This document shows, piece by piece, positions 20,911-39,230 of a stretch of DNA of 64,000 nt; positions within the stretch are counted from its first letter, which is position 1; each line of letters starts with the position of its first letter. A program made the position numbers and the translations under genes. The stretch covers positions 188-64,187 of the forward strand of contig JAFYEM010000023.1 in NCBI GenBank assembly GCA_017544265.1. The letters run 5' to 3'. The DNA comes from Bacteroidales bacterium (lineage in GTDB: Bacteria > Bacteroidota > Bacteroidia > Bacteroidales > UBA932). The notes beneath the pieces were generated by a model, which saw only the letters and a program-made list of their open reading frames with translations, searched no databases and was not told where the DNA came from.

Positions 20911-22914
20911 ATGAAAAAATTACTGATTATCATGGCGACTATTGTTGCTGCAGCCGGCTGCAAGAATGCAGCTCCGGCTCTTGATTTGAAGAATCTTGAC
21001 AAGTCCGTAAGTCCGAAGGAGGACTTCTACGCCTATTCCACGGGCGGATGGCAGAAACGCAATCCCCTGAAGCCGGAATTTGCAAGGTTCGGGAGTTTTG
21101 ATTTTATCGCCGAAAATACCCGCGAGCAGCTTAACGAGCTCTTTTCCTCGATGACCAGGATGGAAACTGAGCCCGGAAGCGTGGAACAGAAGATTTCCGA
21201 CCTCTACAAGATGGGACTAGACTCTGCTTCCCGCAATGCGGCCGGAGCTGCTCCGATACTTGGTTATATCTCTGAAATCCAGGCTATAGACAGCAAGGAT
21301 GCCTTTATGGCGAAAGTTGCCGAGTTGCACAACAACGGTGTCGGGACTCTGTTCGGAGCCGGTGTGGAGGCTGATTTCCTTGACAGCGACAGCCAGATTC
21401 TCTTCCTCGGCCAGGGCGGCCTCGGAATGCATGACAGGGACTATTATCTCAACCCTGAGAACGCTGCCATAAAAGAGGGCTACAGAAACTATCTTGAGAA
21501 GATTTTCAATCTTTCGGGTCTTGACGCTGCGGCTCAGAGGGCAGCGAACGTGCTCGAAGTTGAAGACTCGCTTGCCGTGTGCTCCTGGACAAAAGAGCAG
21601 AACCGCAATATCCCCGCCCTGTACAATCCACGCTCCAGCGCGCAGACCGTCTCTGCATGGCCTTCGCTCCGCCTTGATTCATACTATTCCATCCGCGGAA
21701 TCGAACCTCAGGACAAGCTTATCGTGGCGCAGCCGTCGTTCTTCGACGGTCTGGACAAAATCATAGACACGACTCCTCTGGACAAGCTTATAGATTACCT
21801 TCTCGCGCAGTTTATCGGCGATGCTGCATCTGCGCTCAGCGAGGATTTCTATCTTGCCAGCTGGGATTTCTTCAGCCGTCAGATGGCGGGCACGAAAGAG
21901 CCCCAGCCGCTGTGGAAGAGGGCGATGGGCGTTCCTAACGGAATTCTCGGCGAGGCTGTCGGAAAGATGTACGTGGAGCGCTATTTCCCTGAATCTTCGA
22001 AGCAGAAGATGCTTGCGCTGGTGGAGAACCTCCGCACCGCCCTCGGAGAGCACATAGACTCGCTGGACTGGATGGGTGACGAGACCAAGGCAGCTGCGAG
22101 GGAAAAACTCGCGGCATTCACGGTGAAAATCGGCTATCCGGACAAGTGGAAGGACTACAGTACCCTTGTTGTGGATCCTGAAAAATCCTACTTCGAGAAT
22201 CTTCGCAGCGCCAGCATCTGGTACGTCCGGGACAATATGTCCAAGCTCGGCAAGCCTACCGACAAGACTGAATGGGGCATGACTCCGCAGACGGTCAACG
22301 CCTATTACAACCCCACCACCAACGAGATTTGCTTCCCCGCCGCAATACTCCAGCGTCCTTTCTTCAATCCGGATGCTGACGAGGCTGTAAACTACGGCGG
22401 CATCGGCGTCGTCATAGGCCACGAGATGTCCCACGGCTTCGACGACCAGGGCCGTCAGTTCGACGGGGCCGGCAACATGGTCAACTGGTGGACTCCCGAA
22501 GACGAGGCCCGCTTCAATGAAAAGGCCGAAAAACTTGCGGCCCAGTTCGATGAGGTGGAGATCGTCCCCGGCGTTAAAGCGAACGGCCACTTTACCCTCG
22601 GCGAGAATATCGGCGACCACGGCGGGCTTTCAATAGCATACACTGCCATGCACAACGCCATTGCGGACAACGACCCAGGCCTTATCGACGGTCTCACTCC
22701 CGACCAGAGGTTCTATCTCTCCTACGGCGCAATCTGGGCGCAGAACATTACCGACGAGGAAAAGGTGCGCCTGACCAATCTGGACGTCCATTCTCTCGCG
22801 CGCAACCGCGTGAATGTGTCCCTGCGCAACTTCCAGACCTTCTTCGACGCATTTGACATCAAGGAAGGCGACCCTATGTTCAGGCCTGAGAGCGAGCGCG
22901 TTCACATCTGGTAG
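20911..22914 (+). CDS. M13 family metalloendopeptidase (PepO/neprilysin-like), lipoprotein
   Basis: Lipobox AAGC, VNAYY, GHEMSHGFD (HExxH), GENIGD, and a C-terminal RVHIW. Confidence 0.94.
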   Translation: MKKLLIIMATIVAAAGCKNAAPALDLKNLDKSVSPKEDFYAYSTGGWQKRNPLKPEFARFGSFDFIAENTREQLNELFSSMTRMETEPGSVEQKISDLYKMGLDSASRNAAGAAPILGYISEIQAIDSKDAFMAKVAELHNNGVGTLFGAGVEADFLDSDSQILFLGQGGLGMHDRDYYLNPENAAIKEGYRNYLEKIFNLSGLDAAAQRAANVLEVEDSLAVCSWTKEQNRNIPALYNPRSSAQTVSAWPSLRLDSYYSIRGIEPQDKLIVAQPSFFDGLDKIIDTTPLDKLIDYLLAQFIGDAASALSEDFYLASWDFFSRQMAGTKEPQPLWKRAMGVPNGILGEAVGKMYVERYFPESSKQKMLALVENLRTALGEHIDSLDWMGDETKAAAREKLAAFTVKIGYPDKWKDYSTLVVDPEKSYFENLRSASIWYVRDNMSKLGKPTDKTEWGMTPQTVNAYYNPTTNEICFPAAILQRPFFNPDADEAVNYGGIGVVIGHEMSHGFDDQGRQFDGAGNMVNWWTPEDEARFNEKAEKLAAQFDEVEIVPGVKANGHFTLGENIGDHGGLSIAYTAMHNAIADNDPGLIDGLTPDQRFYLSYGAIWAQNITDEEKVRLTNLDVHSLARNRVNVSLRNFQTFFDAFDIKEGDPMFRPESERVHIW

Positions 22915-24314: not shown

Positions 24315-26390
24315 TTATAAGATAGCGGGGGATTGGGCTTTTTTAAATGTCATTTTGCTTCTTTCAGAAGGAACAACCTGATAGGTTGCGCGGACTTTGT
24401 GCTCAGGTTCAATCTCGACGCAGTTCTTTTTTGCATCGATACTCTTTGTGCCCTTTGCGAACTTCTTAAGGTTCTTGCTTGCAGAGGCTGCAGCGACTGC
24501 TTCATCCGGTGTCGGATAGATATCCGGATCTGCAAGAAGGATAGAGCGATACCCGGCAACTGTTGTGTACAGTTTATCTTCCTCTCCTTCTTCTTCAGCA
24601 AGCTGATATACATTGAACAAAATGCCGTCAAAGTTTATACCATAGTCGTTGCTATATTGTGGATAACCAACGAGTGCAATCAAACCTTCAGCAACATAAG
24701 CTCCGATAAGCGCGTAATTCAAGCTATAGAACGAATCTACGTTTGAAGCATAGAATTCAGGAATAAATCCAAGTCCGGCTAATTGCGGGATGGCAGACTC
24801 TTGATAGTCAGCTTTGTGAGAGTAGATTAATCCATTATATAAATCGAATACCACTGAATCGTCGTACTGATAGTATCCGCCTACGCCTAATCCGGGAAGT
24901 GAGTAGTAATCCTGACCCAAATCAGTGAATTGAGTGGAAAGTTGATACTCAACTTCGCTACCCCAGCCTTCCTTACCAAGAGCGATTGCGTAGACATCAT
25001 ATGTTTTATCTGTCAGCGCTTCAGCACTCAGCGGACCGACAAAATCAGCGGCTGAGTAGTCATCAATTGTGAGAGGATCCGGTTCGCCGACAAGGAAAGT
25101 CTCGTAGGCAATGAATTCAGGCTGGGCTTCGCCTTCAGCAAATGGAACCACAACTACAGTGTAGAAGGAGTTTGGTTCGAGAGCTATGCGGGCCTCGCCA
25201 CTGGCCTTGAGTTCAATAACTACCGGCCCGGCAGGCTCTTCACCTTCTTCTGATGCCCCGCCTTCTTCTGTTTCCTCATCACCTGAAGGAATGATTATAT
25301 CAATACCTGGTTGAGGATTCTTGCCCGGAACAAGAGCAACCTTTGCGGTTTCGACGTCCTTGCCAACAAAGTTGACATCAAACATGGCGAAGAGAGTGCC
25401 ATCAAGTTTGGAGTAAAGTCCAGTATACTCAACAGAAAGAGTGTAATCACCAAGAATGGCACCAGGAAGAGCGATACGGAATTTTCCGGCTTGATCGGCA
25501 TAATACAAACCATCATCATCCCCATAAATCATCTTCCCTTTAGGCATGGTGATTATTTTATCTTTAAGCCATCCGGTGTTTCCGGCCGTTTTTTGATCTT
25601 CAACAGTACTTCCATTTGCAATTGCATATCCGGCCAAGCTGCCTATACTCATCGATCCATATCCCCAGTCAAGAGAGTATGTAGTAATAGGAATCCAAAC
25701 GGCATCAGGATTTTCAGCGTGAACGTAGAAAAAGTTTTCCGCTTCTTTCGCAGGATCATATTTGGCGTCAGGATTATTGGCGTTATATGGAAACTTGTCA
25801 CCATAGGGGCTCTCTAATTTGTAGTAACCCTCATCGCTCATCCAAATATCCAGTTCATACTCAACTGCATCCATTTGATACATCGGGGCTACCATACTTT
25901 CGCGGAATTTCGCTTTTCCCTTGAGTTTAACCCATTCCTTTGGGGCTTCGGGACCAACAAAAACGATGCTCAGTCCATTTCCTCCGTAAGGTGTCGCACC
26001 CGCGGAAATTGCTATGTCAAGCCCGTATTTTTTAGACGGTTCAAACTTAGATGGATCCACAGGAATAACGATGTCGGCAGTTTCTGCTTCAGCATCAAAA
26101 ACAACTTCAATTTCCCCAATGCCTTCAGAATAAATGAGTTTTGTCGTATCAGTGATAGCAACTGTAGCAGTAACTGCCTCACTGGTGTTTCGACGATTAA
26201 GTTTGACAGTAATATCTTCCGACTCATCAGTCAAGGGAAAAGACTTAATCGTATTGGGATCGAAGAAGAATAATGGAGAGCTGGTATCTTCCGGCTCCGC
26301 CGGGACGTAGATGCCCTCCTTTACGGAGCAGGAATAAATCGCAGCACCGACAGTGAGGAAACTTACAATAAATATAATATATTTTTTCAT
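24315..26390 (-). CDS. Surface lipoprotein of left SusCD cassette (unknown function, Ig-like domains)
   Basis: Lipobox IYSC followed by an acidic export-signal-like stretch. Third gene of the left cassette, loosely paralogous to 37028..39211. Confidence 0.72.
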   Translation of the reverse strand: MKKYIIFIVSFLTVGAAIYSCSVKEGIYVPAEPEDTSSPLFFFDPNTIKSFPLTDESEDITVKLNRRNTSEAVTATVAITDTTKLIYSEGIGEIEVVFDAEAETADIVIPVDPSKFEPSKKYGLDIAISAGATPYGGNGLSIVFVGPEAPKEWVKLKGKAKFRESMVAPMYQMDAVEYELDIWMSDEGYYKLESPYGDKFPYNANNPDAKYDPAKEAENFFYVHAENPDAVWIPITTYSLDWGYGSMSIGSLAGYAIANGSTVEDQKTAGNTGWLKDKIITMPKGKMIYGDDDGLYYADQAGKFRIALPGAILGDYTLSVEYTGLYSKLDGTLFAMFDVNFVGKDVETAKVALVPGKNPQPGIDIIIPSGDEETEEGGASEEGEEPAGPVVIELKASGEARIALEPNSFYTVVVVPFAEGEAQPEFIAYETFLVGEPDPLTIDDYSAADFVGPLSAEALTDKTYDVYAIALGKEGWGSEVEYQLSTQFTDLGQDYYSLPGLGVGGYYQYDDSVVFDLYNGLIYSHKADYQESAIPQLAGLGFIPEFYASNVDSFYSLNYALIGAYVAEGLIALVGYPQYSNDYGINFDGILFNVYQLAEEEGEEDKLYTTVAGYRSILLADPDIYPTPDEAVAAASASKNLKKFAKGTKSIDAKKNCVEIEPEHKVRATYQVVPSERSKMTFKKAQSPAIL

Positions 26391-26407
26391 AATCTTCGAT
26401 TGTTAAA

Positions 26408-28024
26408 TTATGCATCTTCGTCTTCAACTGCTTTAGGAGAAGGAGCGGCAGGGTTGTTGTCAGCGTCGCTGAGCTTCTTGTTTGCGTTGATTTCAGTTTC
26501 AGGAATACGGTAAAGAAGAATGTCTGAACCCGCAGGAATATTAAATACTGCAGTTTTAGGGAATCCTGCACCACGGCGGTCAACATCTTTATTAAGACGC
26601 ATGATATCGAACCATGAAATACCTTCACCCCAGAATTCTATCCTTCTCTGACGGTATACCTCTTCTGCAATCTCATCACCGTCGGTTGAATCGAAAGCAT
26701 ATTCCGTATCACGGTATGTCTTAACAAAACCGGTGAGGGTTTCAAGGGCTGTCGCAGGATTGGTGTGTGCTTCGGCCTCAGCCTTAATCAGATAAAGTTC
26801 CTCAACACGGATAAGAGGGAGATCGTTAGCATTAACGGTTGTGCTGGCTTCATCCCTATAGGGAGCGAACTTGACTTGAGTGTATGGTTCATTACCAAAA
26901 TGGCTATCCATAACTTTGGCAAAATCCGCATTAAGAATATCAGAATGGCCTTCGGCATCCAACCACCATCCGTGTCGTGCATCAGAGATGGAAATCAAGC
27001 CGAACAGCTTCTTTGATATCAGGCGTCCACCTGAATACCAACCGTAACCGTAACTGAGGGATCCCATGTGGGAAGGAAAGTTGCAGATAGCAGACTCGAC
27101 AACATCATCCTTCTCATCAATGACATCTGCCCAAAGATAGGATGTCTCGTTAGCTGAATCCCAAAATAGCGGTCCTGATTTGAGTGTTGCAATCGAATAT
27201 GGGGCAAGCTTCTCTTTTTCAGCAAGAGCAAGAGCCTTGGCGGCATCTTCAGCTGCAGCTGTCCAGTTCTCGGTTGTCAGATTGAATCGGGCACGGAGAG
27301 CGTATGCGACAGCACTGTTGACATACCTTTTATCGATACGTTTATCGCCAGCAGCTTCTGCTTTTTCAAGAAAAGCAATAGCGTTGTCGATATCGGAGAA
27401 AATCTGCTCATAAACTTCTTTAACAGTGCTTCTGCCAATACCATCGTTAGCAGCCTCGAGAGCATTCTCGTCTGTTATAAGAGGAACGCATGGTGCATCC
27501 TGATGATCTGCATAATTAAACTGGAAAAGTTGAGCGAGTACCCAGTAGTCAAAAGCACGAACAGCGTATGCCTGTCCGATTAGTGACTGTACAGATACGA
27601 GAGGAGAATCCTTATCGTAGCTTTCAAGAAGTCCATTTGCTATCTTTAACTGCTTGTACATCCACATCCATATCATGTAAACCTCGTCACTGGAATAGTT
27701 GCGGCTTGAATACGTTACGGAAGCAGCAAACCAGTTATAACCAGAAGTGGAAGAAACCATATCGTAACCATTGCCGTCCAAAAGGAGCATGAGTCCGCCA
27801 TAACCGATATCGTTATGGTTACCGGAAATAGCACTCTGATATTCGTGGAACTGGAAATAGAGAGAATTGACGCCGGCGGTGGCTTTGGCGGGATCACGCT
27901 GGAGGACAGTCTCTTTCTGTTTAGTGGTGATAGTCGCACCGGAAGGTTCTGTCTCCAAAAAGTCGGAGCAACTGCTAAATACTAAAGCGGTCGCAAGGAG
28001 TGAAATGATATATCTTGTTTTCAT
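26408..28024 (-). CDS. SusD/RagB family lipoprotein (left cassette)
   Basis: Lipobox FSSC-SDFLETEP, GQAYAVRAFDYWVLAQLF, RVEELYLIKAEA, QRRIEFWGEGISWFDIMR. Confidence 0.93.
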   Translation of the reverse strand: MKTRYIISLLATALVFSSCSDFLETEPSGATITTKQKETVLQRDPAKATAGVNSLYFQFHEYQSAISGNHNDIGYGGLMLLLDGNGYDMVSSTSGYNWFAASVTYSSRNYSSDEVYMIWMWMYKQLKIANGLLESYDKDSPLVSVQSLIGQAYAVRAFDYWVLAQLFQFNYADHQDAPCVPLITDENALEAANDGIGRSTVKEVYEQIFSDIDNAIAFLEKAEAAGDKRIDKRYVNSAVAYALRARFNLTTENWTAAAEDAAKALALAEKEKLAPYSIATLKSGPLFWDSANETSYLWADVIDEKDDVVESAICNFPSHMGSLSYGYGWYSGGRLISKKLFGLISISDARHGWWLDAEGHSDILNADFAKVMDSHFGNEPYTQVKFAPYRDEASTTVNANDLPLIRVEELYLIKAEAEAHTNPATALETLTGFVKTYRDTEYAFDSTDGDEIAEEVYRQRRIEFWGEGISWFDIMRLNKDVDRRGAGFPKTAVFNIPAGSDILLYRIPETEINANKKLSDADNNPAAPSPKAVEDEDA

Positions 28025-28037
28025 ATCTCTCGGCGTT

Positions 28038-31000
28038 TTAGAAAGTTATATTAAGACCTCCTGATACGGTGCGGATAGGCGTGTATCTGGCTGTTGTTGA
28101 AGAAACATAGCTTTGGCGAGGGTCCAGGCCCTTGCGTGCAGATATAAGAGCTACATTGTCAGCTGTCACATAAATGCGGACCTTTGACAAGCCAATCTTA
28201 GAAATCCATTTCTCAGGAAGAGAATATCCGAAAGTAATATTATTCAGTGAGAGGTAATTAGAACTGGTCAAGAACCTTGTTGTAGTACCGTTGGAATACC
28301 TGTCCTCGCCGTTGATACGAGGAATATCGGTATCGGTATTCTCAGGAGTCCATGCTTTGCGGATATCTATGTGCCAGTTTTGACCCATGTAGTAGTAGTA
28401 TCCACTGTGCATCAGGCGCTGATAACCGGAGTCAAACATTTTTCCGCCGAGTTGATAGGACAGTGAAATGGATAAGTCAAATCCATACGCAGATACAGAA
28501 GTCCCAAAACCGCCGTAAACCTTAGGCATCAGGTTATCGGTGGCAATTTTGTGCTCTGAAGCTACCTGATAATCGGTGGTGGTGACGCGACTACCATCTT
28601 TGTCAGTTGTATAGAATAAAGGTGCGCCGGTCGCTTTGTCAACACCAGCCCATTCAACAAGGTAGAGTCTGTACATTGAGTAGCCTTCCTCAAGTATGGA
28701 GGTGCCGTCAATCATGCGATGACGTCCGTCTTCTACGGGAAGGTCGGGTGAAAGGCTGATAATCTTGTTATTGATGTTTGTGAAGTTGAAGAAAGCAGAC
28801 CAAACAACGTTGTTGGTGCGGATTATATCTCCTTTAAGTTCTAATTCGAGACCGTAGTTCTTCATTGAACCAATATTCATCGGAAGAGACGAATAACCAC
28901 TCACAAGAGGGGTCGGTTTGTAGTAGAGCATATTGTTAGACTGACGTCCGAAATACTCGATGGAACCTGAGAGACGGTCTTCAAATAAGGAGAAGTCTAA
29001 ACCAACATTGTAAGAGATTGATTTTTCCCATGTGAGGTCAGGATTACCCTTGAATGAAAGAACGCCGTCGGAGAAGAATCCGTTGGAACCGGAGAGTGAA
29101 TACTGGTCGAGGTAAGCATAGTTATTTCCGATCGCGTCATTGCCCTGCTGGCCGAAAGAGGCCTTAAGTTTGAGAAGGTTGACCCAGTTAACACTGTCCA
29201 TGAAACCTTCGGATGAGATCACCCACGCGGCAGATCCGTTGAGGAAGGCGCCCCAGCGGTTCTTGGGAGCGAATCTTGATGACGCATCCTCGCGGAAGCC
29301 GAAGCTCACCAGATACTTGTCGGCGAAACTATAGTTGGCCCTTGCAATGATTCCCAAAGTCGCGTATTTAGAAGCGCTGCCATAACCGTTCTTCTGGTCA
29401 ATTGCATTGCTGATATAGTATGACTGGGGGTCATAGAGATTTTGGCCCTGCGCACTCAGATTGGTGACTTTTAGCTGATAAGCATCAACACCGGCTGTAA
29501 AATCGAACTTGTGGATATTCTTGATAGCGAATTCGTAGTTTGCTATAAGCTGAAAGTCTAGGCCGCGGGTACGGGCAGAACTCTGGTATGCGGTTCCACC
29601 ATATTCTGCACTTTGGCCTATGTAAGCATTGCCGAGGTAGTTGTGACGGGTAAATTCAATGTCCATAGATGCATTGGCGTTGAGTGTGAAGCCCTTGAAT
29701 GGCTTTAACTCCGCGAAAGCAGAAAGTGCGAAAATATCCTTGCAGTATTCTTCCTTATTCCAGATGAGATCACCGACAGGATTGGCGATTTGCATGAATG
29801 TACGTTTTGAGGGAGATATTTTTCCGTCGCCGTAATCATAGACTTTTCGACCATTGTTCATCATAATATTTCCCTCTGCATCTCGGACATATACAGGATA
29901 TACCGGAGCGACAAAGTTTGCTATATAAAAAGCATTTACAGAAGACGTTGTGTTAGTCTGCTCGTCAGGATACTGGCTAAATGAGGAGCTATACGCAATG
30001 TTCCCGCCAATTTTGAGCCAATTCTTAACCTTATAGTCGGCCTTCAAACGGGCAGTCTCTCTGCGGAATCCTGAGTTAGAGATAACACCCTTGTCATCAA
30101 GGAAGCCGGCAGAAGCATAGAAACTGTAACGGTCGTTACCTGCCGTGGCGGAGACATTATATTCTTGACGAATTTTGTCCGCGAAGGTCTCCTTTGTCCA
30201 GTCATCGGGAGTGTAGTAGAAATTCCCATCACTGTAACCAAGGGTAGCTTTAGGGTTAATCTTACCATTTGCGCCAACGAGGTACTCGCCCTTTGGAACG
30301 GTAAAAATGGTGTAACCATAACCATAATCCCCACCGTTAAGGGCATATTTACTTGAAATACCTCCGTAGCTAACACCGTTGACCATTGCGGCAGCGGTGG
30401 CAGGGGAAGTACCGGCAGAAATAAGTTGATTATAAATCGCCAGGTAAGCAAGTTCTGTGTACTCGAAAGGAGAACTGAGTACGTCATAGTTCGTGACAGC
30501 TCGGCTATTGACACCAACACGTGCATCAATGTTGATTACCGCATGGCCGGCTTTACCTTTCTTGGTAGTAATGGTTACAACACCGTTCGCGCCACGGGCA
30601 CCATAGAGAGAGGTGGTAGCAGCATCTTTGGCAACCGTAATGGATTCGATGTCTTGAGCGTTGATGGAGGAAATGTCACCGTCGAAAGGGCGTCCATCCA
30701 CAACGTATAGCGGGTTGGCATCGGCATTGATGGAACCCACACCACGTACTCGGATAGTTGAACCCACGCCCGGCTGTCCGTTGTTACTGAGCACCTGAAC
30801 ACCTGCCATAGTTCCGGCCAGAGCATTGGTAACATTGGAGACCTGACGTTTTTCGATGGTCTCGGAATCCATCGAGCTCACTGAACCCGTGAACGTGCCT
30901 TTGGTGGAAGTACCATAGGCGGTAATAACGACCTCTTTCAAGAGTTTGGAGTCGGGTTCGAGGCTGATTAGGATGTCCGCCCCGGCATCCACTTCCTGAG

Positions 31001-31241
31001 ATTTCATTCCAATGAATGACACCAGAAGTTTTGCTCCGGAAGGAACATTGTTGAGGGTAAACGAACCGTCAACGTCTGAAACCGTTCCCTTGAGGTCTGT
31101 ACCCTGAACTGTAATGACTGCTCCGGCAACGGGCTCTCCGTCATCTGATGAACGAATCACGCCATGCACACGATTCTGTGCAAATGCGCTTATCGCCACT
31201 GCCAGAAAGCAGGTCAGGGTTAGCAAGATTTTTCTTGTCAT
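28038..31241 (-). CDS. SusC/RagA family TonB-dependent transporter (left cassette)
   Basis: LKEVVITAYG TonB box, PLYVVDG, KDAATTSLYGARGANGV, NPDLTWEK, C-terminal SGGLNITF. Confidence 0.96.
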   Translation of the reverse strand: MTRKILLTLTCFLAVAISAFAQNRVHGVIRSSDDGEPVAGAVITVQGTDLKGTVSDVDGSFTLNNVPSGAKLLVSFIGMKSQEVDAGADILISLEPDSKLLKEVVITAYGTSTKGTFTGSVSSMDSETIEKRQVSNVTNALAGTMAGVQVLSNNGQPGVGSTIRVRGVGSINADANPLYVVDGRPFDGDISSINAQDIESITVAKDAATTSLYGARGANGVVTITTKKGKAGHAVINIDARVGVNSRAVTNYDVLSSPFEYTELAYLAIYNQLISAGTSPATAAAMVNGVSYGGISSKYALNGGDYGYGYTIFTVPKGEYLVGANGKINPKATLGYSDGNFYYTPDDWTKETFADKIRQEYNVSATAGNDRYSFYASAGFLDDKGVISNSGFRRETARLKADYKVKNWLKIGGNIAYSSSFSQYPDEQTNTTSSVNAFYIANFVAPVYPVYVRDAEGNIMMNNGRKVYDYGDGKISPSKRTFMQIANPVGDLIWNKEEYCKDIFALSAFAELKPFKGFTLNANASMDIEFTRHNYLGNAYIGQSAEYGGTAYQSSARTRGLDFQLIANYEFAIKNIHKFDFTAGVDAYQLKVTNLSAQGQNLYDPQSYYISNAIDQKNGYGSASKYATLGIIARANYSFADKYLVSFGFREDASSRFAPKNRWGAFLNGSAAWVISSEGFMDSVNWVNLLKLKASFGQQGNDAIGNNYAYLDQYSLSGSNGFFSDGVLSFKGNPDLTWEKSISYNVGLDFSLFEDRLSGSIEYFGRQSNNMLYYKPTPLVSGYSSLPMNIGSMKNYGLELELKGDIIRTNNVVWSAFFNFTNINNKIISLSPDLPVEDGRHRMIDGTSILEEGYSMYRLYLVEWAGVDKATGAPLFYTTDKDGSRVTTTDYQVASEHKIATDNLMPKVYGGFGTSVSAYGFDLSISLSYQLGGKMFDSGYQRLMHSGYYYYMGQNWHIDIRKAWTPENTDTDIPRINGEDRYSNGTTTRFLTSSNYLSLNNITFGYSLPEKWISKIGLSKVRIYVTADNVALISARKGLDPRQSYVSSTTARYTPIRTVSGGLNITF

Positions 31242-31259
31242 AACAAAACGATTAGTTAA
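31230..31259. repeat. 30-bp perfect inverted repeat with 32166-32195 (shared 5'UTR + start codon of the two susC genes)
   Basis: ttttcttgtcataacaaaacgattagttaa is the reverse complement of ttaactaatcgttttgttatgacaagaaaa. A further 14-bp IR lies at 31266-31279 / 32151-32164. Confidence 0.95.
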
Positions 31260-31286
31260 GTTTAAAATAAATACACTACCAACCGG

Positions 31287-31312
31287 ATTAAGAAAACGTC
31301 CGTTTTCTTGTT
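31287..31312 (-). promoter_or_regulatory. Left serine-invertase crossover site (hix/gix/Mpi-like)
   Basis: attaagaaaacg-TC-cgttttcttgtt: 9-bp palindromic arms around an asymmetric dinucleotide (31299-31300). Contains AAACGTCCGT. Confidence 0.82.
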
Positions 31313-31916
31313 ACACATTGATAATGTCATTGATGAACCTCCTTACTGTTTGTCTGGACACCTTTAATTTTCGCGCTGCTTCGGAAATCGTCACGCCCGC
31401 CTCTATCATTTCTTTCAATTGCTGCCTTTTTGAGTAGAGCTTGTAGCACCGAGGAGATGATTTATGACCGGCGGGGCGTCCTAGTATAACGCCTTCCGCA
31501 CGCTTGCGTTGAAGTGCTTCTTTTGTTCTTTGGCTGATCAGATTTCGCTCTATTTCTGCAGACAACCCGAATGCAAAGGCAAGAACCTTGCTTTGGATAT
31601 CGTCGCCAAGACGATAGCCATCCTTTATAGTCCAAACCTTACAACCGCGTGACATACAGAAACTTAATACCTCCATAATCATAAAAAGGCTTCGTCCCAA
31701 TCGCGAAAGTTCTGTGCAAATCATAATGTCTCCTCTATGCAATTGCTGCAGAAGTCTTCCAAGACGGCGTTGCTTGTAGTTTTTTAGTCCACTGGTTGTT
31801 TCTTCAATCCAGAAATCGATTCTCAAGCCATTTGAAATACAGAATTGATTTATCTCAAATCTTTGATTATCAAGGGTCTGTTTATCGCTGCTGACCCGCA
31901 TGTAGCCATAAATCAT
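31311..31916 (-). CDS. mpi: Serine recombinase, Mpi-like DNA invertase
   Basis: MIYGYMRVSSDKQ (catalytic Ser), ELSRLGRS, YRLGDDIQSKVLAFAFGLSAEIERNLISQRTKEAL, LGRP and a C-terminal HTH. Closely matches my recollection of Bacteroides fragilis Mpi. Confidence 0.9.
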   Translation of the reverse strand: MIYGYMRVSSDKQTLDNQRFEINQFCISNGLRIDFWIEETTSGLKNYKQRRLGRLLQQLHRGDIMICTELSRLGRSLFMIMEVLSFCMSRGCKVWTIKDGYRLGDDIQSKVLAFAFGLSAEIERNLISQRTKEALQRKRAEGVILGRPAGHKSSPRCYKLYSKRQQLKEMIEAGVTISEAARKLKVSRQTVRRFINDIINV

Positions 31917-32070
31917 AGCAAGTTTGGTTTAAAAGTTTTAAGTTAAGATATGTTATTAAATAAGGGAAATAACTGTCGATTTGAAAGTGAAATTTAGGGA
32001 ATTTTATCTGTTTTTTTAGAAAAATACGGCTAATTCTCGCATTCAGACGCAATTAGGGCTGAAATTACAA

Positions 32071-32102
32071 TTTGTAATTCTAATTTTTTTTTTCCAACTT
32101 TG
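32071..32102 (+). promoter_or_regulatory. Bacteroidetes sigma-A-type promoter inside the invertible segment, currently facing the right susC
   Basis: TTTG at 32071-32074, a 20-nt spacer, then CAACTTTG at 32095-32102 (one mismatch to TAnnTTTG). Ends 13 nt before the right crossover site. Confidence 0.7.
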
Positions 32103-32115
32103 CGCGTAAATCCGG

Positions 32116-32141
32116 TTTGAAAAAACGGACGTTTGATCCGA
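32116..32141 (+). promoter_or_regulatory. Right serine-invertase crossover site (hix/gix/Mpi-like)
   Basis: tttgaaaaaacg-GA-cgtttgatccga, central GA at 32128-32129. Its reverse complement contains AAACGTCCGT. Confidence 0.82.
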
Positions 32142-32183
32142 CCGGGTTGTGTAGTGTATTTATTATTAACTAATCGTTTTGTT

Positions 32184-35100
32184 ATGACAAGAAAACTACT
32201 GCTTGTTCTGACCTGTACGATAATGGGGATGGGCATTGCCCTCGCACAGTCCCGCGTGAGCGGTACCGTTGTGTCCTCAGAAGACGGTGAACCGGTTGCC
32301 GGTGCCATCGTTACCGTGCAGGGAACAGACCTGAAAGGAACTGTCACGGACGCTGAAGGACGCTTCTCCATCGACAAGGTCGCGTCCGGTGCCACCCTCC
32401 AGATTTCTTTCATCGGTATGAAAACGAAAGAAGTTGCAGCGGGAGCCAATCTGGATATTGTGCTCGAGCCCGATAGCAAACTTCTGAAGGAAGTCGTCAT
32501 CACGGCCTACGGTACCTCCACAAAGGGAACGTTCACAGGCTCCGTGAGTTCGATGGATGCCGAGACCATTGAAAAACGTCAGGTCTCCAATGTCACCAAC
32601 GCCCTCTCCGGTACTATGGCCGGTGTCCAGGTACTCAATTCCAACGGACAGCCGGGCGTAGGTTCCACAGTCCGCATCCGCGGTGTGGGTTCCATCAACG
32701 CCGGTTCCGCCCCTCTGTACATCGTGGACGGTATGCCTTTCGACGGTGACATTTCCTCAATCAATTCGCAGGACATCGAGTCCATTACGGTTGCAAAGGA
32801 TGCTGCCACCACCTCTCTCTACGGTGCGCGCGGTGCCAACGGTATCGTCATCATCCAGACCAAGAAAGGTAAGGCCGGAAGGGCTGTCGTGAATATCGAC
32901 GCCCGCGTCGGTGTGAACAGCCGTGCAATCAAGAACTACGACGTCCTCTCCTCGCCGGACGAGTACACCGAGCTCGCTTACAAGGCAATCTACAACCAGC
33001 TGCTTGCGACCTACGACCCTGCGACCGCGCAGGCTTATGCCAATGGTCCCATCTACGGCGGTATTGCTTCCAGCAGCGATATCGGCATCACAGGTATTTC
33101 CGCAGGTTACGGTTATCCTATTTACACCGTTCCCCAGGGTCAGTATCTGATTGGTACCGACGGTCGCCTGAATCCCCACGCGACCCTCGGCTACAGCGAC
33201 GGAACGTACTATTACACTCCCGACGACTGGGCCAAGTACACCTTCAAGGATCAGATCCGCCAGGAATACAACGCCAGCGTCTCCGCGGGCGGCGACCGCT
33301 ACAGCATCTACGCTTCCGCGGGCTACCTGGACGACAAGGGTGTCATCCGCAATTCCGGGTTCAACCGTACCAGCGCCCGTTTGAAAGCTGACTATAAGGT
33401 AAAGGACTGGCTCAAGATCGGCGGTAACGTCGCTTATTCATTCTCATACAGCCAGTATCCGGACGAGCAGACCAATACCACCTCTTCCGGCAACGCCTTC
33501 TTTGTCGCGAACTTCATCGCTCCCGTCTATCCGATTTTCGTGCGCGACACCAAAGGCAATATCGTTACCTCCAACGGCCGTCAGGTCTATGACTATGGTG
33601 ACGGCGTTTCCGCCGGAAACTCCCGTGCCTTCATGTCCATCGCGAACCCTGCCGGTGACCTTATATATAATAAGGAAGAATACTGCATGGATATCTTCTC
33701 GCTGGGCGCCTTCGTCGAGTTGAAACCCTTCAAGGGCTTCACCCTCACCGGGAACTTCGGCATGGACCTGGATTTCACCCGCTACAACAACCTCGGCAAC
33801 GCATATTTCGGACAGAGTGCGAGCTACGGCGGTACTGCCTACCAGGCATCCTCCCGTACCCGCGGATTCGACTATCAGGTCATAGCCAACTACGAGGTCG
33901 CCATCAAGGCTCTCCACAAACTGGACTTCACCCTCGGTATCGACAACTACGAGTACAAGTATGCGACCATCAGCGCACAGGGGCAGAACCTGTACAATCC
34001 CGAGTCCTTCTATGTCTCGAACTCCATCGACCAGAAGAACGGCTACGGCAGCGCCACCACATACAAGACCTTCGGCGCCTTCTTCAGGGCCAACTACAGC
34101 TATGCTGACAAATATCTCGTGAGTCTTGGTTTCCGCGAGGACGGTTCTTCCCGCTTCGCTCCCAAGAAGCGCTGGGGTTCCTTCCTTTCCGGTTCCGCGG
34201 CATGGGTAATCTCCTCCGAGGGCTTCATGGACGGCGTGGACTGGGTCAACCTCCTGAAACTCAAGGCTTCCTACGGACAGCAGGGTAATGACGACATCGG
34301 CAACTACTACGCCTACCTGGACCAGTATTCAGTTTCCGGTGCCAACGGCCTCTTCTCCGACAGCGTTCTTGCCTACAAGGGTAATCCCGACCTGACCTGG
34401 GAAAAATCCATTTCCTACAACATCGGTCTCGACTTCTCTCTCTTCGACGACCGTCTGAGCGGTTCCATCGAATACTTCGGCCGTCAGTCCAACGACATGC
34501 TTTACTACAAGCCCACTCCTCTGGTGAGCGGTTACTCATCCATCCCCATGAACGTCGGTTCCATGAAGAACTACGGCGTAGAGCTCGAACTCAAGGGAGA
34601 CATGGTCCGCACCCAGGACATCGTCTGGTCTGCGTATCTGAACCTCACCAACGTCAACAACAAGATCGTCAAGCTCCACGAGGACCTCGGCGGCAAGTGG
34701 ATCAACGGCGCCTTCATCTATGAAGAGGGCCAGTCCCGCTACCGTATGTACATAGTCGAATGGGCTGGCGTCGACAAGGAGACAGGTGCACCTCTCTTCT
34801 ACACGGTCAAGGATGGCGAGAGGGTGACCACCACCAACTACCAGAATGCATCCGAGAACGGCCTTATAGCGACCGACAACCTGATGCCCAAGGTCTATGG
34901 CGGTTTCGGTACCTCTCTCCAGGCTTTCGGCTTCGACCTCTCCGTATCGCTTTCCTACCAGCTTGGCGGAAAGATCTACGACAGCGGTTATGCCCGCCTG
35001 ATGCACAGCGGTTACAAATCCTACATGGGTAACAACTGGCACAAGGATATCCGCAAGGCATGGACTCCCGAGAACACCGACACGGATGTTCCCCGTCTGA

Positions 35101-35375
35101 ATGCTGCCGACCAGTATTCAAACTACACTTCCACAAGGTTCCTGACCAGCTCCAACTATCTCTCGCTGGACAACATCACCTTCGGTTACTCCCTTCCCCA
35201 GAAGTGGCTGTCAAAGGCGCACATCTCCAAGATCCGTATCTATGCGACCGCGGACAATGTCGCCCTTCTCTCCGCCCGCAAGGGCCTCGACCCCCGTCAG
35301 AGCTTCACCTCTGCGACTACGGCTCTCTATACGCCGATCCGTACCATCTCCGGTGGTCTTAACATAACCTTCTAA
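32184..35375 (+). CDS. SusC/RagA family TonB-dependent transporter (right cassette)
   Basis: Real start MTRKLL at 32184. Same motifs as the left susC (LKEVVITAYG, NPDLTWEK, SGGLNITF), with long identical peptide stretches. Confidence 0.96.
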   Translation: MTRKLLLVLTCTIMGMGIALAQSRVSGTVVSSEDGEPVAGAIVTVQGTDLKGTVTDAEGRFSIDKVASGATLQISFIGMKTKEVAAGANLDIVLEPDSKLLKEVVITAYGTSTKGTFTGSVSSMDAETIEKRQVSNVTNALSGTMAGVQVLNSNGQPGVGSTVRIRGVGSINAGSAPLYIVDGMPFDGDISSINSQDIESITVAKDAATTSLYGARGANGIVIIQTKKGKAGRAVVNIDARVGVNSRAIKNYDVLSSPDEYTELAYKAIYNQLLATYDPATAQAYANGPIYGGIASSSDIGITGISAGYGYPIYTVPQGQYLIGTDGRLNPHATLGYSDGTYYYTPDDWAKYTFKDQIRQEYNASVSAGGDRYSIYASAGYLDDKGVIRNSGFNRTSARLKADYKVKDWLKIGGNVAYSFSYSQYPDEQTNTTSSGNAFFVANFIAPVYPIFVRDTKGNIVTSNGRQVYDYGDGVSAGNSRAFMSIANPAGDLIYNKEEYCMDIFSLGAFVELKPFKGFTLTGNFGMDLDFTRYNNLGNAYFGQSASYGGTAYQASSRTRGFDYQVIANYEVAIKALHKLDFTLGIDNYEYKYATISAQGQNLYNPESFYVSNSIDQKNGYGSATTYKTFGAFFRANYSYADKYLVSLGFREDGSSRFAPKKRWGSFLSGSAAWVISSEGFMDGVDWVNLLKLKASYGQQGNDDIGNYYAYLDQYSVSGANGLFSDSVLAYKGNPDLTWEKSISYNIGLDFSLFDDRLSGSIEYFGRQSNDMLYYKPTPLVSGYSSIPMNVGSMKNYGVELELKGDMVRTQDIVWSAYLNLTNVNNKIVKLHEDLGGKWINGAFIYEEGQSRYRMYIVEWAGVDKETGAPLFYTVKDGERVTTTNYQNASENGLIATDNLMPKVYGGFGTSLQAFGFDLSVSLSYQLGGKIYDSGYARLMHSGYKSYMGNNWHKDIRKAWTPENTDTDVPRLNAADQYSNYTSTRFLTSSNYLSLDNITFGYSLPQKWLSKAHISKIRIYATADNVALLSARKGLDPRQSFTSATTALYTPIRTISGGLNITF

Positions 35376-35388
35376 TATGCAGCGCGAT

Positions 35389-37008
35389 ATGAAAACAAGA
35401 TTTATCACAGTTTCCATTCTTGCCGGAGCTCTCTGCCTCTGGAGCTGCTCTGACATGCTTGAGACCGAGCCCAATGGCTCGACCATCACTGCTTCGCAGA
35501 AAGAGAAGACACTTAAGAATGACCCTTCCAAGTCATCTGCAGGCGTCAACTCCCTCTACGCACAGTTCAATGAGGTCTTCGGTGTCGTTTCGGGCGACCG
35601 CCACAACGATATCGGTTTCCCTGCGAACATAATTTTCATGGACGCCAACGGCGAGGACCTCGTTTCCGCCGGTAACGGATACAACTGGTTCAACTCCTCG
35701 GTGGATTTCTCTTCGAGAGACTATCAGGACGAAGCCGCAATCCTTGTCTGGTCCAACCTTTACAAGATAATCGCCAACTGCAACAACATCCTTGCCGTTG
35801 CAGACCGCGAAACCTCGAATCCCGATGCCCTTTCCGCTAACGGACAGGCTCTCGCCCTCCGTGCATTCGCGTACTGGGAACTGGCCCAGTTGTATGCCTT
35901 CCACATCAAGGGACATGAGACTGACGCCTGCGTTCCGCTCGTGCTTGAGTCCAATAAGGACGAACTTGCCCTTATGGGTATCGAAAGGAGCACCGTCGCC
36001 AAAGTCTATGAGCAGATTACTGAAGACATCGACGAAGCCATCGTGGCCCTGGATAAGGCTGCTGCCGAAAAGGTAAAGCGTGGTGACAAACGTTATATCA
36101 ACAACACAGTCGCCTACGGTCTCCGTGCTCGTATCAACCTTACGTTGGAGAACTGGTCTGCTGCCGCGTCCGATGCCGCCAAGGCAATCGAACTTGCCGA
36201 AGCTGAAGGTATCAGGCCTTATTCCATCAAGGAACTTGCCGATCCGTCAAGCTTCATCCTCATGGATTCAAGTGAGCCTTCTTACGTCTGGGCTGACATA
36301 ATCGCCGAAACCGACGACGTGGTCGAGACCGGTATCTGCAACTTCTCCTCCCACATGGGTTCCATGAACTATGGCTACGCCTCCTACGCCGAGGGTCGTG
36401 CAATCAGCAAGAAACTGTTTGCCACTATCGCCGACAACGACGTCCGCAAGGGCTGGTGGCTGGATGAGAGCGGTCTTTCCGCCAATATCTCCGCCGAGGC
36501 CAACGCCTACATGGCAGACAACTATTCCAACCTTGCCCGCCTCCAGGTCAAGTACGGCCCCTACAAGGGTGAACTCGGTACTTCCACCAATGCCTGCGAC
36601 GTCCCGCTCATGCGCGTGGAGGAACTCTATCTCATCAAGGCGGAAGCTCTTGGCCGCGACAACACCTCCGCAGGTGTTAGTGCTCTCAATGATTTCGTTT
36701 CCACCTACCGTCAGCCGGGTTACTCCTTCGCTGCTTCCAGCGCCGACGCTTTTGTCGACGAGGTTTTCCGCCAGAGGAGAATCGAACTCTGGGGAGAGGG
36801 CCTGAACTGGTTTGATATTATGCGTCTGAACAAGGGTATCGACCGCCGCGGCTGCGGATTCGAAGCTACCGCTGTATTCAATATTCCCGCCGGGGCCCAG
36901 ATTCTGCTCTGGAGAATTCCCAAGGCTGAAATTGAATCCAACCCGAAGATCTCCGAATCCGACAACAACCCTTCGGCTGATAAACCGGAACCTGTCAAGG
37001 ATATTTAA
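35389..37008 (+). CDS. SusD/RagB family lipoprotein (right cassette)
   Basis: Start MKTRFI at 35389 (or 35377). Lipobox LWSC-SDMLETEP, GQALALRAFAYWELAQLY, RVEELYLIKAEA, QRRIELWGEGLNWFDIMR. Confidence 0.93.
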   Translation: MKTRFITVSILAGALCLWSCSDMLETEPNGSTITASQKEKTLKNDPSKSSAGVNSLYAQFNEVFGVVSGDRHNDIGFPANIIFMDANGEDLVSAGNGYNWFNSSVDFSSRDYQDEAAILVWSNLYKIIANCNNILAVADRETSNPDALSANGQALALRAFAYWELAQLYAFHIKGHETDACVPLVLESNKDELALMGIERSTVAKVYEQITEDIDEAIVALDKAAAEKVKRGDKRYINNTVAYGLRARINLTLENWSAAASDAAKAIELAEAEGIRPYSIKELADPSSFILMDSSEPSYVWADIIAETDDVVETGICNFSSHMGSMNYGYASYAEGRAISKKLFATIADNDVRKGWWLDESGLSANISAEANAYMADNYSNLARLQVKYGPYKGELGTSTNACDVPLMRVEELYLIKAEALGRDNTSAGVSALNDFVSTYRQPGYSFAASSADAFVDEVFRQRRIELWGEGLNWFDIMRLNKGIDRRGCGFEATAVFNIPAGAQILLWRIPKAEIESNPKISESDNNPSADKPEPVKDI

Positions 37009-37027
37009 TCATTAACGGGCTAAGATT

Positions 37028-39211
37028 ATGAAAACATTCAAATATTTAGTTTATACCCTTGCCGCGGCCTTGACCGTCGCGTCCTGCGCCAAGGAAAAGG
37101 AGAACGAGTACCAGGCTGTTCCGGCCCCGAAAGGGGACGAGGTTATTTTCGCTCCCATCTCCGAACTTGAGAACTTCGACAAGGTTACGGGTGTCGTCAG
37201 CCTTACCGGCAATGAAGACGGCTACTTCAATGTCTTTCTCAAGAGAGAGAAGGCGGAGAAGATGTCCCTTGTGCAGGTCGAGTCCTCCGCAGATGAAATC
37301 TTTACCGTGCCCTCTTCCGCCATCTTCGAGAAAGGCGAGAAACAGACTGCAATAAAGATTGAATTCGACCCCGAGGAAATCGAGTCTCAGAAAGCCTACG
37401 ACTTCACCCTCACCATCAGCGGAGCACCTGTCTCCAAATATGCTGTCTCCACTATCAACTTCCAGGCCGGCGACGTCCTTCCCCTGGAATGGCACAAGTG
37501 GAAGAAGGGTCACATGACGGAAGGTTTCTGGGGTGAAGAAGAGGATGAGGATATGTACTATGCGGTTGTGGACGCCGACAAGGATTCCAAAGAACTTTTT
37601 GCAAGTTTTGCCGGTGAAAGCGATCCTATCACAGCTTTCCAGAAGGAATGGAAACCTGGCGACAACAGTTATCTCGACCTCTACTGCTATATTGAGAACT
37701 GCTTCGACACTATGGGCGATGCCGATCCCACGAATTACTATTTTACCTGGCATCTGAAAGACAACTCCATTTCTATTGCGCCGCAGTACATGGGTTGGAC
37801 TAATTCTTCTGGAGTTCCTGTCTATTTCCTCGATGCGGCTCATTATCCTATGACTGCGGCAGGATGGGATGAAGCTCGGGCTATAGCCTGGGCAAAGAGC
37901 AACGGCTTAGCTCTTCCTTATTATGATGGAAACGGCGGATTCTATCTCGCAGACTGGTACATGACAAATATCGCCACCGGCAACGGTTATCAATTTGGTG
38001 GCAATCCCGATGTCTTCATTGCCGAAGGCTTCGTCCGCACCGTGGATTACAACCCTTCCAAAGAGGTCTATTCTTACAAAGACTTCATGTCCGGTTCCGT
38101 TGAATCCATCGGCCTTGGCCGCAGCTGGGAAGATCAACCGCTTCAGATTAATGAATATGCTGCTTCGAGCGATGACAAGGCCCTCTACTATCTTCCCGAC
38201 TACTTCGGTGAGGACCTGGGCCTTGCTTTCACCGGACCCCTGCAGGGCAACCTCAAGGACGGTCTTCCTATCCAGGGCGTAGCCAACGAGCAGCCCACCG
38301 GCATGGAGTATGGCGGAAAGCCCCTCTTTGCTGTGGTTACCGGCGGCAAGATCACCGTTGAAGACGGTAATTACGTATTCACCATCAAAGTCCAGTACGA
38401 GACCATGGCCCCGAGCGAGGACGATCCCGAAAAGCTTGTTGTCTTTGGCACCCTTCCCGAGGTCGAGGAAATCTTCACTTCCAGCTATGTCGCCGAGTAC
38501 TATTCGGACTACCAGATTGAGCCTGTAAAGAGCAAGAGGGATTTGTTCGGTGTTTACAAAGCAACAGCTACTTCTTTCTTAAACGGTCCTCTCGATCTTG
38601 AACTTACCATCACTGAAGGTTACTGGAACGAAGACCGTACCGAGCAGTATGTAAATATCTCCGGCCTTACCGGGGGCAATCTTCCGATTGACGATACCGT
38701 TTACGCTCTTTATGAGGACGGATTTATTGTACTTGAGGCCCAGACCTTCTTCGGCCCGTATATGGCTGGTGCTTACTACTGCCTGGTGGATCCTCTGGCA
38801 TCTGCTGATTTGGCGACAAGTACCAACCTTATCGGCGGTATCTACACCGACCCTGACACCAAGGCCCAGAAGCTGGTCTTTGTGGGCGACGGCTCCTTTA
38901 CCGATGGTTTCTATTTCTACCCGTATTCTCCATCTTCCGGTCCTGCAGGGACTTTCGACTTCGTGTTTGATGTCTTTGCGGACTATACCGGTCACGAAGT
39001 TATCGAGGAGGAGGTTGATGAGCCCGCTGCGGCTCCCGCCAAGCTCTCCCTTCCCAAGAACAGCAAGCCTGCCGTTTCTTTCGACGGCAATATGCTCCGC
39101 AATCTTGGAAAGAAGAGCCACAAGGCCGTCCCTTCCCGTTCCTTCGCGCTTACTTTCCCTGAAAGAGGTTCAAGGAATCTGGAACCTAAATCTTTTGTAA
39201 GTATCCGTTAA
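37028..39211 (+). CDS. Surface lipoprotein of right cassette (unknown function)
   Basis: Lipobox VASC-AKEKENE, acidic, with an N-terminal Ig-like region similar in layout to 24315..26390. Confidence 0.72.
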   Translation: MKTFKYLVYTLAAALTVASCAKEKENEYQAVPAPKGDEVIFAPISELENFDKVTGVVSLTGNEDGYFNVFLKREKAEKMSLVQVESSADEIFTVPSSAIFEKGEKQTAIKIEFDPEEIESQKAYDFTLTISGAPVSKYAVSTINFQAGDVLPLEWHKWKKGHMTEGFWGEEEDEDMYYAVVDADKDSKELFASFAGESDPITAFQKEWKPGDNSYLDLYCYIENCFDTMGDADPTNYYFTWHLKDNSISIAPQYMGWTNSSGVPVYFLDAAHYPMTAAGWDEARAIAWAKSNGLALPYYDGNGGFYLADWYMTNIATGNGYQFGGNPDVFIAEGFVRTVDYNPSKEVYSYKDFMSGSVESIGLGRSWEDQPLQINEYAASSDDKALYYLPDYFGEDLGLAFTGPLQGNLKDGLPIQGVANEQPTGMEYGGKPLFAVVTGGKITVEDGNYVFTIKVQYETMAPSEDDPEKLVVFGTLPEVEEIFTSSYVAEYYSDYQIEPVKSKRDLFGVYKATATSFLNGPLDLELTITEGYWNEDRTEQYVNISGLTGGNLPIDDTVYALYEDGFIVLEAQTFFGPYMAGAYYCLVDPLASADLATSTNLIGGIYTDPDTKAQKLVFVGDGSFTDGFYFYPYSPSSGPAGTFDFVFDVFADYTGHEVIEEEVDEPAAAPAKLSLPKNSKPAVSFDGNMLRNLGKKSHKAVPSRSFALTFPERGSRNLEPKSFVSIR

Positions 39212-39230
39212 ACCCTGAATCTTCCAAGTT

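Follow-up and report, generated by a model that had tools for sequence, protein, structure and literature searches.

An ~829-bp DNA segment from an uncultured ruminant-gut Bacteroidales bacterium appears to be a self-contained, Hin-like promoter toggle between two SusC/SusD operons, a reading to which we assign a probability of roughly 0.8. The segment lies on contig JAFYEM010000023.1 (assembly GCA_017544265.1), of which a stretch of 64,000 nucleotides, hereafter the window, was analyzed. It carries the gene for a 201-amino acid small serine recombinase of the Mpi family, along with a 200-bp AT-rich control region, and is bounded by two inverted 26-bp sites that share a 13-bp core. The segment inverts in nature, with breakpoints inside this core.

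Serine recombinases (for Hin, see PMC3798978) bind each of their sites as dimers and form a synaptic tetramer, within which they make phosphoserine-linked double-strand cuts with a 2-nt stagger at the dyad center; an asymmetric core forces inversion between inverted sites. At the locus described here, dimers of the Mpi-family recombinase would bind the two 26-bp dyad-symmetric sites at the ends of the 829-bp segment, and the bound sites would synapse and be cut with a 2-nt stagger at the central TC/GA dinucleotide. Because this dinucleotide is nonpalindromic and the sites are inverted, only inversion would yield ligatable ends. A single outward promoter of the Bacteroides type, predicted at the segment end that is upstream of the start of the recombinase gene, would read through the adjoining site and then a conserved leader, and so transcribe whichever of the divergent SusC/SusD operons is located there. 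This would be the right operon in the orientation of the window, and the left operon after a flip. The outcome would be the mutually exclusive, heritable yet reversible expression of two outer-membrane transporter complexes.

Crossover sites and invertible segment

The elements of the segment are as follows.

31287-31312, unstranded: left recombination site, ATTAAGAAAACG-TC-CGTTTTCTTGTT, with TC at 31299-31300 and 12-bp half-sites
32116-32141, unstranded: right recombination site, TTTGAAAAAACG-GA-CGTTTGATCCGA, with GA at 32128-32129, inverted relative to the left site
31294-31306, plus strand: 13-bp core AAACGTCCGTTTT, whose partner is the reverse complement of 32122-32134; crossover is confined here
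31300-32128, unstranded: invertible segment, ~829 bp between central dinucleotides, with the recombinase gene and the 200-bp AT-rich control region

An earlier note on this DNA, made from the sequence alone, had quoted both sites, and they are located exactly as quoted at 31287-31312 and 32116-32141. The inverted core common to the two, AAACG-TC-CGTTTT, is identical over all 13 bp. The left site is a perfect 9+9 palindrome centered on TC, and the four half-sites, read toward the center, are nnnnAnAAAACG. The sequence AAACGTCCGT has exactly two matches in the window, one per strand, and these occur only at the two sites (chance expectation 0.09; at least two matches in 0 of 100 shuffles). No further AAACGNNCGTTT-like site was found in the 64-kb window beyond these two, and the window has no exact match to ARACGTWCGT.

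In reading AAACGTCCGT, both sites match the Mpi consensus at 9 of 10 positions, with the mismatch located in the central dinucleotide. The likeness of the site sequences to hix and gix that the earlier note drew is presumed, as the comparison covered architecture alone. That architecture (26-bp sites, a ~1-kb segment, and a promoter switch) agrees with the published description of Hin (PMC3798978). The 9/10 likeness to the Mpi consensus claimed by the same note is real: the single difference between the sites and the Mpi repeat ARACGTTCGTN (PMC8375218) is in the second central base, which is C rather than T.

At the left site, the inner half and the recombinase stop codon (31311-31313) overlap. 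At the right site, a terminator-like hairpin (CGGATCAAACGTCCG followed by TTTTTT) coincides with the site on the minus strand (32126-32140) and reads inward; it could stop transcription that comes into the cassette from the flank. RNA folding of the minus strand of 31270-31330, which comprises the 3' end of the recombinase gene and the native left junction, gave a nested hairpin (-18.1 kcal/mol, z -3.8), in which a stem formed by ACAUUAUCAAU and the GUAGUGU leader encloses the site palindrome. The RNA of the flipped junction folded no better than shuffled sequences (z 0.26).

Inversion in natural populations

Inversion was assessed by aligning public metagenome contigs to the region. These are de Bruijn-graph contigs assembled with a word size of 31, and not raw reads; X labels denote sequencing runs and L labels assembled contigs. 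The native orientation was observed in the window, L081, L082, and runs X1-3, X7, X8, and X9, and the flipped orientation in L083, L084, and X11. Runs X4-6, X10, and X13 were mixed. The earlier note had predicted two hybrid 26-mers for the flipped junctions, ATTAAGAAAACGTCCGTTTTTTCAAA and AACAAGAAAACGGACGTTTGATCCGA, and both were found verbatim in public assemblies and as junction contigs (J1 and J2) in metagenome runs. L083 and L084, which have the flipped arrangement, each contain both hybrid 26-mers verbatim. An identical recombinase is encoded in these two contigs, in the native L081 and L082, and in L085, which is cut at both sites.

All four junctions (native left, native right, J1, and J2) were assembled as contigs in the goat-gut run X10, in which the J2 contig consists of TATCAATGTGTAACAAG followed by 32122 onward. 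Flank and interior contigs of this run begin or end at 31306, 31294, 32134, and 32122, which are the four edges of the 13-bp core. Runs X4-X6, which look like one data set deposited three times, yielded a 47-nt J1 contig composed of 32105-32134 and then TCTTAATCCGGTTGGTA (the reverse complement of 31277-31293), at a depth of 3.4 versus 2.6 for the native right junction. Neighboring contigs in these runs end at 31306 and 32134, the last bases shared by both forms. Run X11 was assembled in the flipped form, with 31306 joined to 32121 on opposite strands through 13 shared nucleotides, and in the sheep-gut run X13 a J2 end occurs alongside the native left junction. Flipped junctions account for roughly 20-60% of the local depth and recur across independent studies and across host species; they place the inversion at the sites that the earlier note had predicted. 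A deletion joint between the two sites, as expected from excision, occurred in no run, which is a weak negative for contigs alone.

The segment is also flanked by a longer repeat.

31210-31280, with its partner at 32145-32215, unstranded: conserved leader and 5' coding repeat (the untranslated-region, UTR, repeat), 71 nt, 79% identical, containing GTAGTGTAT and wholly outside the sites

As the assembly used words of 31 nt and the core has 13 bp, each junction word needs real reads spanning the core. Flank-specific sequence in the junctions reaches the core, which excludes the 71-nt UTR repeat as the place of crossover; as a candidate breakpoint, the repeat was ruled out. The earlier note had named a UTR repeat as the other place to which breakpoints might map, and the flank-specific bases present up to the core show that they do not.

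The recombinase

The catalyst of this inversion is very probably the enzyme encoded in the cassette itself.

31311-31916, minus strand: 201-amino acid small serine recombinase of the Mpi family, with a Resolvase domain, a C-terminal helix-turn-helix (HTH), and the nucleophile motif RVS9

Residues 2-143 match Pfam PF00239 (Resolvase; 5e-33), and residues 161-197 match HTH_28, HTH_23, and HTH_7. The sequence Y5-M-R7-V-S9 aligns with Y6-A-R8-V-S10 of gamma-delta resolvase. The protein thus has the catalytic domain with a nucleophilic serine, the C-terminal HTH, and the length (~180-210 amino acids) of a small serine recombinase. The gene is intact, with the catalytic serine and arginine present, and it is 100% conserved across both orientations. 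The resemblance to Mpi drawn by the earlier note extends to the protein, which scores 311.1 bits on NCBIfam NF009949 ("master DNA invertase Mpi family", equivalog), above the cutoff of 272; canonical members score 338-344. Gin (4m6f; E 1.3e-11) and gamma-delta resolvase (E 8e-12) are equally remote from the recombinase.

In a database of 5.8 billion proteins, the recombinase falls in a cluster of three members, beyond which identity does not exceed 70%. A scan of genome contigs with the recombinase returned, as its best 80 loci, canonical Mpi-like genes at 64-69% identity. These 80 have a conserved downstream gene beginning ATGAGCGATTTCGTGCAGCAAC and no SusC gene within 6 kb, and were rejected as instances of the same system. 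The canonical Mpi-like genes (L001-L080) are very often located 20-300 bp from a contig end, and several belong to bins labelled Blautia, Akkermansia, or Bifidobacteriaceae, which is likely to be mis-binning.

Candidate promoter and transcription

Two features in the control region bear on transcription.

32071-32102, plus strand: candidate outward promoter P_out, with -33 TTTG at 32071-32074, a 20-nt spacer, and -7 CAACTTTG at 32095-32102
32062-32086, unstranded: perfect palindrome AATTACAATTTGTAATT, which overlaps the -33 TTTG and is conserved in L083, L084, and L088

P_out is located in the AT-rich control region, the 200 bp that separate the recombinase start from the right site, and its predicted start, near 32107-32110, would have it read through the right site. 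By motif scan, TTTG-N20-CAACTTTG is one of only 17 such motifs in the window on both strands, and several of the others are just upstream of genes. The -7 box ends 22-23 nt before ACG-GA in four systems, namely the window and the related cassettes L086, L089, and L092 (described below), and the box is retained in the strain variants L083 and L088. In the clade of these three relatives, the recombinase gene is on the other side of the promoter, so that the invariant feature is an outward promoter adjoining the site. P_out is likely to be the switched promoter, which would place the right operon in the ON state in the orientation of the window and the left operon ON after a flip. The palindrome overlapping its -33 element could be an operator or other regulator-binding site.

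Strains vary upstream of the recombinase gene. In X8, X11, X16, X18, and L088, the 125 nt upstream of the recombinase start (31920-32046) are replaced by unrelated sequence of the same length, with retention of the promoter block (32046-32141). A G>A change at 32135, within the right site, is present as well in X8 and L088.

Bovine rumen metatranscriptome contigs aligned to L119, a relative of the L089 type, and run from the flank gene across the site and into the cassette. Their ends within the cassette are at 1337 (X38; 5 nt past the -7 box), 1317 (X33), 1303 (X35), and 1408/1409 (X26 and X29). The recombinase gene is reached by the contig of X28 alone, a run labelled "WGS"; the other contigs stop short of it. 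These contigs support outward transcription borne by the cassette, with a start site that is not cleanly mapped. No Rfam element and no strong terminator were found in the leader region, for which a scan for sigma-70 promoters and terminators gave marginal matches only.

Related cassettes

A search with the right SusC identified a 77%-identical ortholog in L086, along with an orthologous SusD and downstream genes in the same order. L086 likewise has a serine recombinase (208 amino acids, 45% identical to that of the window, 264 bits) between two divergent SusC/SusD operons. Its left module is unrelated to that of the window, with SusC proteins ~29% identical. The recombinases of the related cassettes score 248-265 bits on NF009949, just below the cutoff of 272.

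Relatives of the L086 recombinase at 67-77% identity occur in many clusters, and their genomic context was checked. P0277 is located between a SusC/SusD operon and an operon in which a gene for an 830-amino acid protein comes first and a SusC gene second. Assemblies with the P0277 recombinase exist in both orientations (L089 versus L090 and L091). P0262 is located between two divergent SusC/SusD operons, and L092 and L093 have the same layout as the toggle. The contig of P0245 ends just beyond the cassette, and P0308 has a different arrangement. On L096 (5001-6776), a relative of the L086-type recombinase adjoins a DUF1016/YhcG gene between convergent SusC/SusD operons, an arrangement unlike that of the toggle; enrichment of DUF1016 near programmed inversions has been reported (PMC9881135).

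Every aligned cassette end reads inner-ACG-GA-CG(T/A)T-outer, followed by the leader (G)TAGTGTAT, and the larger clade has a second block, TATCAATATTTATGTTTAAC, ahead of the SusC ATG. The leader motif GTAGTGTAT (31270-31279 and 32150-32158 in the window) is downstream of the site in every related cassette (L086, L089-L092, L109, and L119), at 4 nt after the core in the relatives versus 17-19 nt in the window. No Rfam match was found for the leader motifs. A metagenome scan with the pattern CTTTG-N20-25-ACGGACG-N2-20-TAGTGTAT gave 24 matches, two of which (L109 and L119) were genuine.

Comparison of L089 with L090 at four junctions confines the crossover to G-TC-CGTATA, 9 bp that include the central TC. 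The two sites of L095 (about 4950 and 5740) have the core AACG-GT-C, with GT/AC rather than TC/GA at the center, which hints that the central dinucleotide varies between cassettes. In the clade of L086, L089, and L092, the recombinase gene is co-directional with the promoter, opposite to the gene order in the window.

Taken together, the related cassettes (L086, L089-L093, L095, L109, and L119) resemble the window in their divergent SusC-type operons, embedded serine recombinase, ACG-GA-CG core, outward promoter spacing, and GTAGTGTAT leader. They differ from it in having 45%-identical recombinases, a co-directional recombinase gene, and unrelated partner operons. These cassettes are not named in the literature searched.

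Alternative explanations

Several observations weigh against the promoter toggle as proposed. P_out fits the Bacteroides -33/-7 pattern with one mismatch, a C for the consensus T in the -7 box. RNA from the window was found in one weak run (X25; 17% of words), which covered both operons sparsely and the switch not at all. On L119, the RNA contig ends are heterogeneous, and a start site is hard to map where shared leaders break the assembly graph. X10 has uneven depths (9.6-9.7 versus 2.1-3.5), which suggests mixed strains. The crossover is resolved to 13 bp in the window and to 9 bp in a relative, which does not pinpoint cleavage at TC; we infer TC to be the cleavage dinucleotide from dyad symmetry and from general serine-recombinase chemistry. 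The role of the resident recombinase as catalyst is likewise one that we infer, and a genome-wide master Mpi could act on a site with 9/10 likeness to its consensus. Lastly, no clear terminator was found between the recombinase stop codon and the left SusC gene. As this stop codon abuts the left site, some transcriptional read-through from the recombinase gene is possible, which could also express the operon assigned to the OFF state.

Such read-through is central to an alternative in which the segment inverts in the same way but the recombinase's own promoter is functional. The recombinase would then share one transcript with the downstream SusC/SusD genes, and the left operon would be ON in the orientation of the window. 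Consistent with this, the recombinase stop codon overlaps the left site, leaving only ~70 nt to the susC ATG with no convincing terminator in between, and X28 covers the cassette of the relative continuously, although this run is labelled "WGS" and all other RNA contigs of the relative stop before the recombinase gene. However, the minus strand upstream of the recombinase has only weak promoter matches (TATTTTTC and TAAATTTC, both lacking a -33 element), and the very stretch in which such a promoter would be located is replaced wholesale in strain variants that keep P_out. In L086, L089, and L092, moreover, the recombinase gene lies beyond the promoter block, and what is conserved is an outward -7 box 22-23 nt from the site. 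We consider a transcript from the recombinase's own promoter to be an unlikely basis for the switch, and favor P_out.

The sites might instead be real but recombined in trans by a genome-wide master Mpi, the cassette paralog being inactive or having another target. In favor of this, B. fragilis Mpi has 13 dispersed target regions (PMC4747536), nearly all Bacteroidales have canonical Mpi-like genes, and the core matches the published Mpi repeat at 9 of 10 positions (PMC8375218). The mismatch, however, is in the central dinucleotide, where serine recombinases require matching overhangs, and the window has zero exact Mpi-consensus sites. The cassette gene is itself intact, with its catalytic serine and arginine, and fully conserved in both orientations, and unrelated cassettes of the same layout each have their own recombinase. 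Catalysis in trans is therefore very unlikely, and the resident enzyme remains our choice for the catalyst.

That the flipped junctions arose by RecA-type homologous recombination across the 71-nt UTR repeat, or as assembly or polymerase chain reaction chimeras, is extremely improbable: although an imperfect inverted repeat (79% over 71 nt) does flank the segment and the evidence consists of de Bruijn-graph contigs, flank-specific sequence continues up to the 13-bp core, which lies inside the boundary of the repeat and is too short for junction words of 31 to form without spanning reads, and the junctions are found again, at appreciable depth, in independent studies and in different host species, with breakpoints that coincide with a dyad-symmetric site beside a recombinase gene.

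Flanking operons and composition

The recombinase gene is located between two divergent SusC/SusD operons.

28038-31241, minus strand: left SusC-like TonB-dependent transporter (Pfam), 1067 amino acids, with its ATG 45 nt outside the left site
26408-28024, minus strand: left SusD-like protein, left operon
24315-26390, minus strand: 691-amino acid protein with no Pfam match, left operon
32184-35375, plus strand: right SusC-like transporter (Pfam), 1063 amino acids, with its ATG 42 nt outside the right site
35377-37008, plus strand: right SusD-like protein, right operon (rest of operon, 35377-41429)
37028-39211, plus strand: 727-amino acid protein, right operon
39231-41429, plus strand: 732-amino acid BACON/Big_2/Cleaved_Adhesin protein, right operon

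Identity between left and right is 75% for SusC and 54% for SusD. The sites are in the leaders, and the flip leaves coding sequences unchanged, with the recombinase and the SusC proteins identical in both states. Neighboring genes at 20911-22914 and 42343-43563 encode M13 and M16 peptidases, and not glycoside hydrolases; with such neighbors, the two SusC/SusD systems may not be classical glycan polysaccharide utilization loci.

The two sides of the cassette differ in composition. GC content is 0.445-0.47 in the left operon (0.47 in the left SusC gene) and 0.43-0.47 in the left module along with the recombinase gene, for which GC at third codon positions (GC3) is 0.40-0.50. The right SusC and SusD genes have a GC content of 0.54-0.555 and GC3 of 0.65-0.73, and the whole window has a GC content of 0.54. 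This compositional break, between 24315-31916 and 32184-37008, suggests that the left module and the invertase were horizontally acquired.

At the orthologous resident locus, two related organisms have 45%-identical recombinases, opposite gene order, and unrelated partner modules. The foreign GC content of the left module and the different recombinase and partner in L086 suggest that the cassette and the partner operon are exchangeable. Very tentatively, such switches might form a modular, plug-in class, in which a leader-proximal ACG-NN-CG site beside a resident SusC/SusD operon would be a docking point for exchangeable invertase cassettes and partner operons, and the central dinucleotide would be an orthogonality code. 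We regard this as doubtful. In such a class, the central dinucleotide (TT in Mpi, TC in the window, and GT in L095) may keep co-resident switches from recombining with one another and scrambling the chromosome.

Implications

If the promoter toggle operates as proposed, Mpi-family serine invertases would form compact, self-contained cis switches as well as trans-acting masters of capsule promoters. The switch would give ruminant-gut Bacteroidales an either/or choice of major surface and nutrient-uptake proteins, and surface choices of this kind matter for substrate preference and for the evasion of phages and antibodies. Its 26-bp sites, 201-amino acid enzyme, invariant asymmetric central dinucleotide unlike that of Mpi, and fixed spacing between promoter and site are all testable with reporters, and make it a candidate orthogonal genetic toggle native to Bacteroidales. 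That the layout recurs at an orthologous locus, with recombinases that are only distantly related and partner operons that are unrelated, makes the assembly and exchange of such switches a tractable question.

Comparison with known systems

Mpi of B. fragilis flips 13 dispersed promoter regions in trans, and its gene is located outside its targets, head-to-head with tsr19 (PMC4747536, PMC5903667). Mpi-family genes are also statistically enriched beside predicted programmed inversions (PMC9881135). The window recombinase belongs to the same protein family, the window system, like that of Mpi, would switch a Bacteroides-type promoter between repeats, and the repeat cores are alike, ARACG-TT-CGT in Mpi (from the ARACGTTCGTN of PMC8375218) and AAACG-TC-CGT in the window. 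However, the window protein is only 64-70% identical to canonical Mpi-like proteins, and its gene lies inside the single segment that it presumably flips. The targets differ as well, being capsule loci switched ON or OFF by Mpi and, in the window, SusC/SusD operons that would be chosen as A or B. The window system thus lacks two hallmarks of Mpi, a master gene outside its targets that acts in trans and a TT-core repeat, and unlike a master invertase it has its gene inside the segment and no further sites in 64 kb.

The Hin/hix system consists of a ~1-kb segment with two inverted 26-bp sites, the invertase gene, and an outward promoter, and it switches alternative surface antigens (PMC3798978). 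Like Hin, Gin, Cin, and Pin, the window system has inverted dyad sites of ~26 bp with an asymmetric 2-bp core, an invertase gene inside the segment, and a C-terminal HTH in the invertase. The relatives L086, L089, and L092 also share with Hin the order of invertase gene, promoter, and site, whereas in the window the invertase gene and the candidate promoter point away from each other. Hin switches a single operon on or off, and the alternative depends on the repressor FljA; the window promoter would be handed between two divergent operons. The window recombinase, moreover, is remote from Gin, being no closer to it than to gamma-delta resolvase, and its nearest named family is Mpi.

Phase variation of SusC/SusD proteins by DNA inversion is known in Bacteroides (PMC4747536, PMC12632263, PMC13064476). 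The literature searched, which does not include key primary papers, has no description of a serine invertase cassette by which one promoter is toggled between two divergent SusC/SusD operons. The SusC/SusD shufflons and outer-membrane protein inversions of B. fragilis and B. thetaiotaomicron resemble the window system in making a phase-variable choice among alternative SusC/SusD proteins by inversion. In shufflons of the Tsr0667 type, however, the expression site receives gene segments or whole genes through the action of tyrosine recombinases, often at several loci, and the repeats are inside coding regions, whereas the window has a serine recombinase and a promoter cassette, with sites 42-45 nt upstream of start codons and no change to coding sequence. 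Like other invertons, the segment is bounded by inverted repeats and occurs in both orientations in natural populations (X10, X4-6, and X13; L083, L084, and X11).

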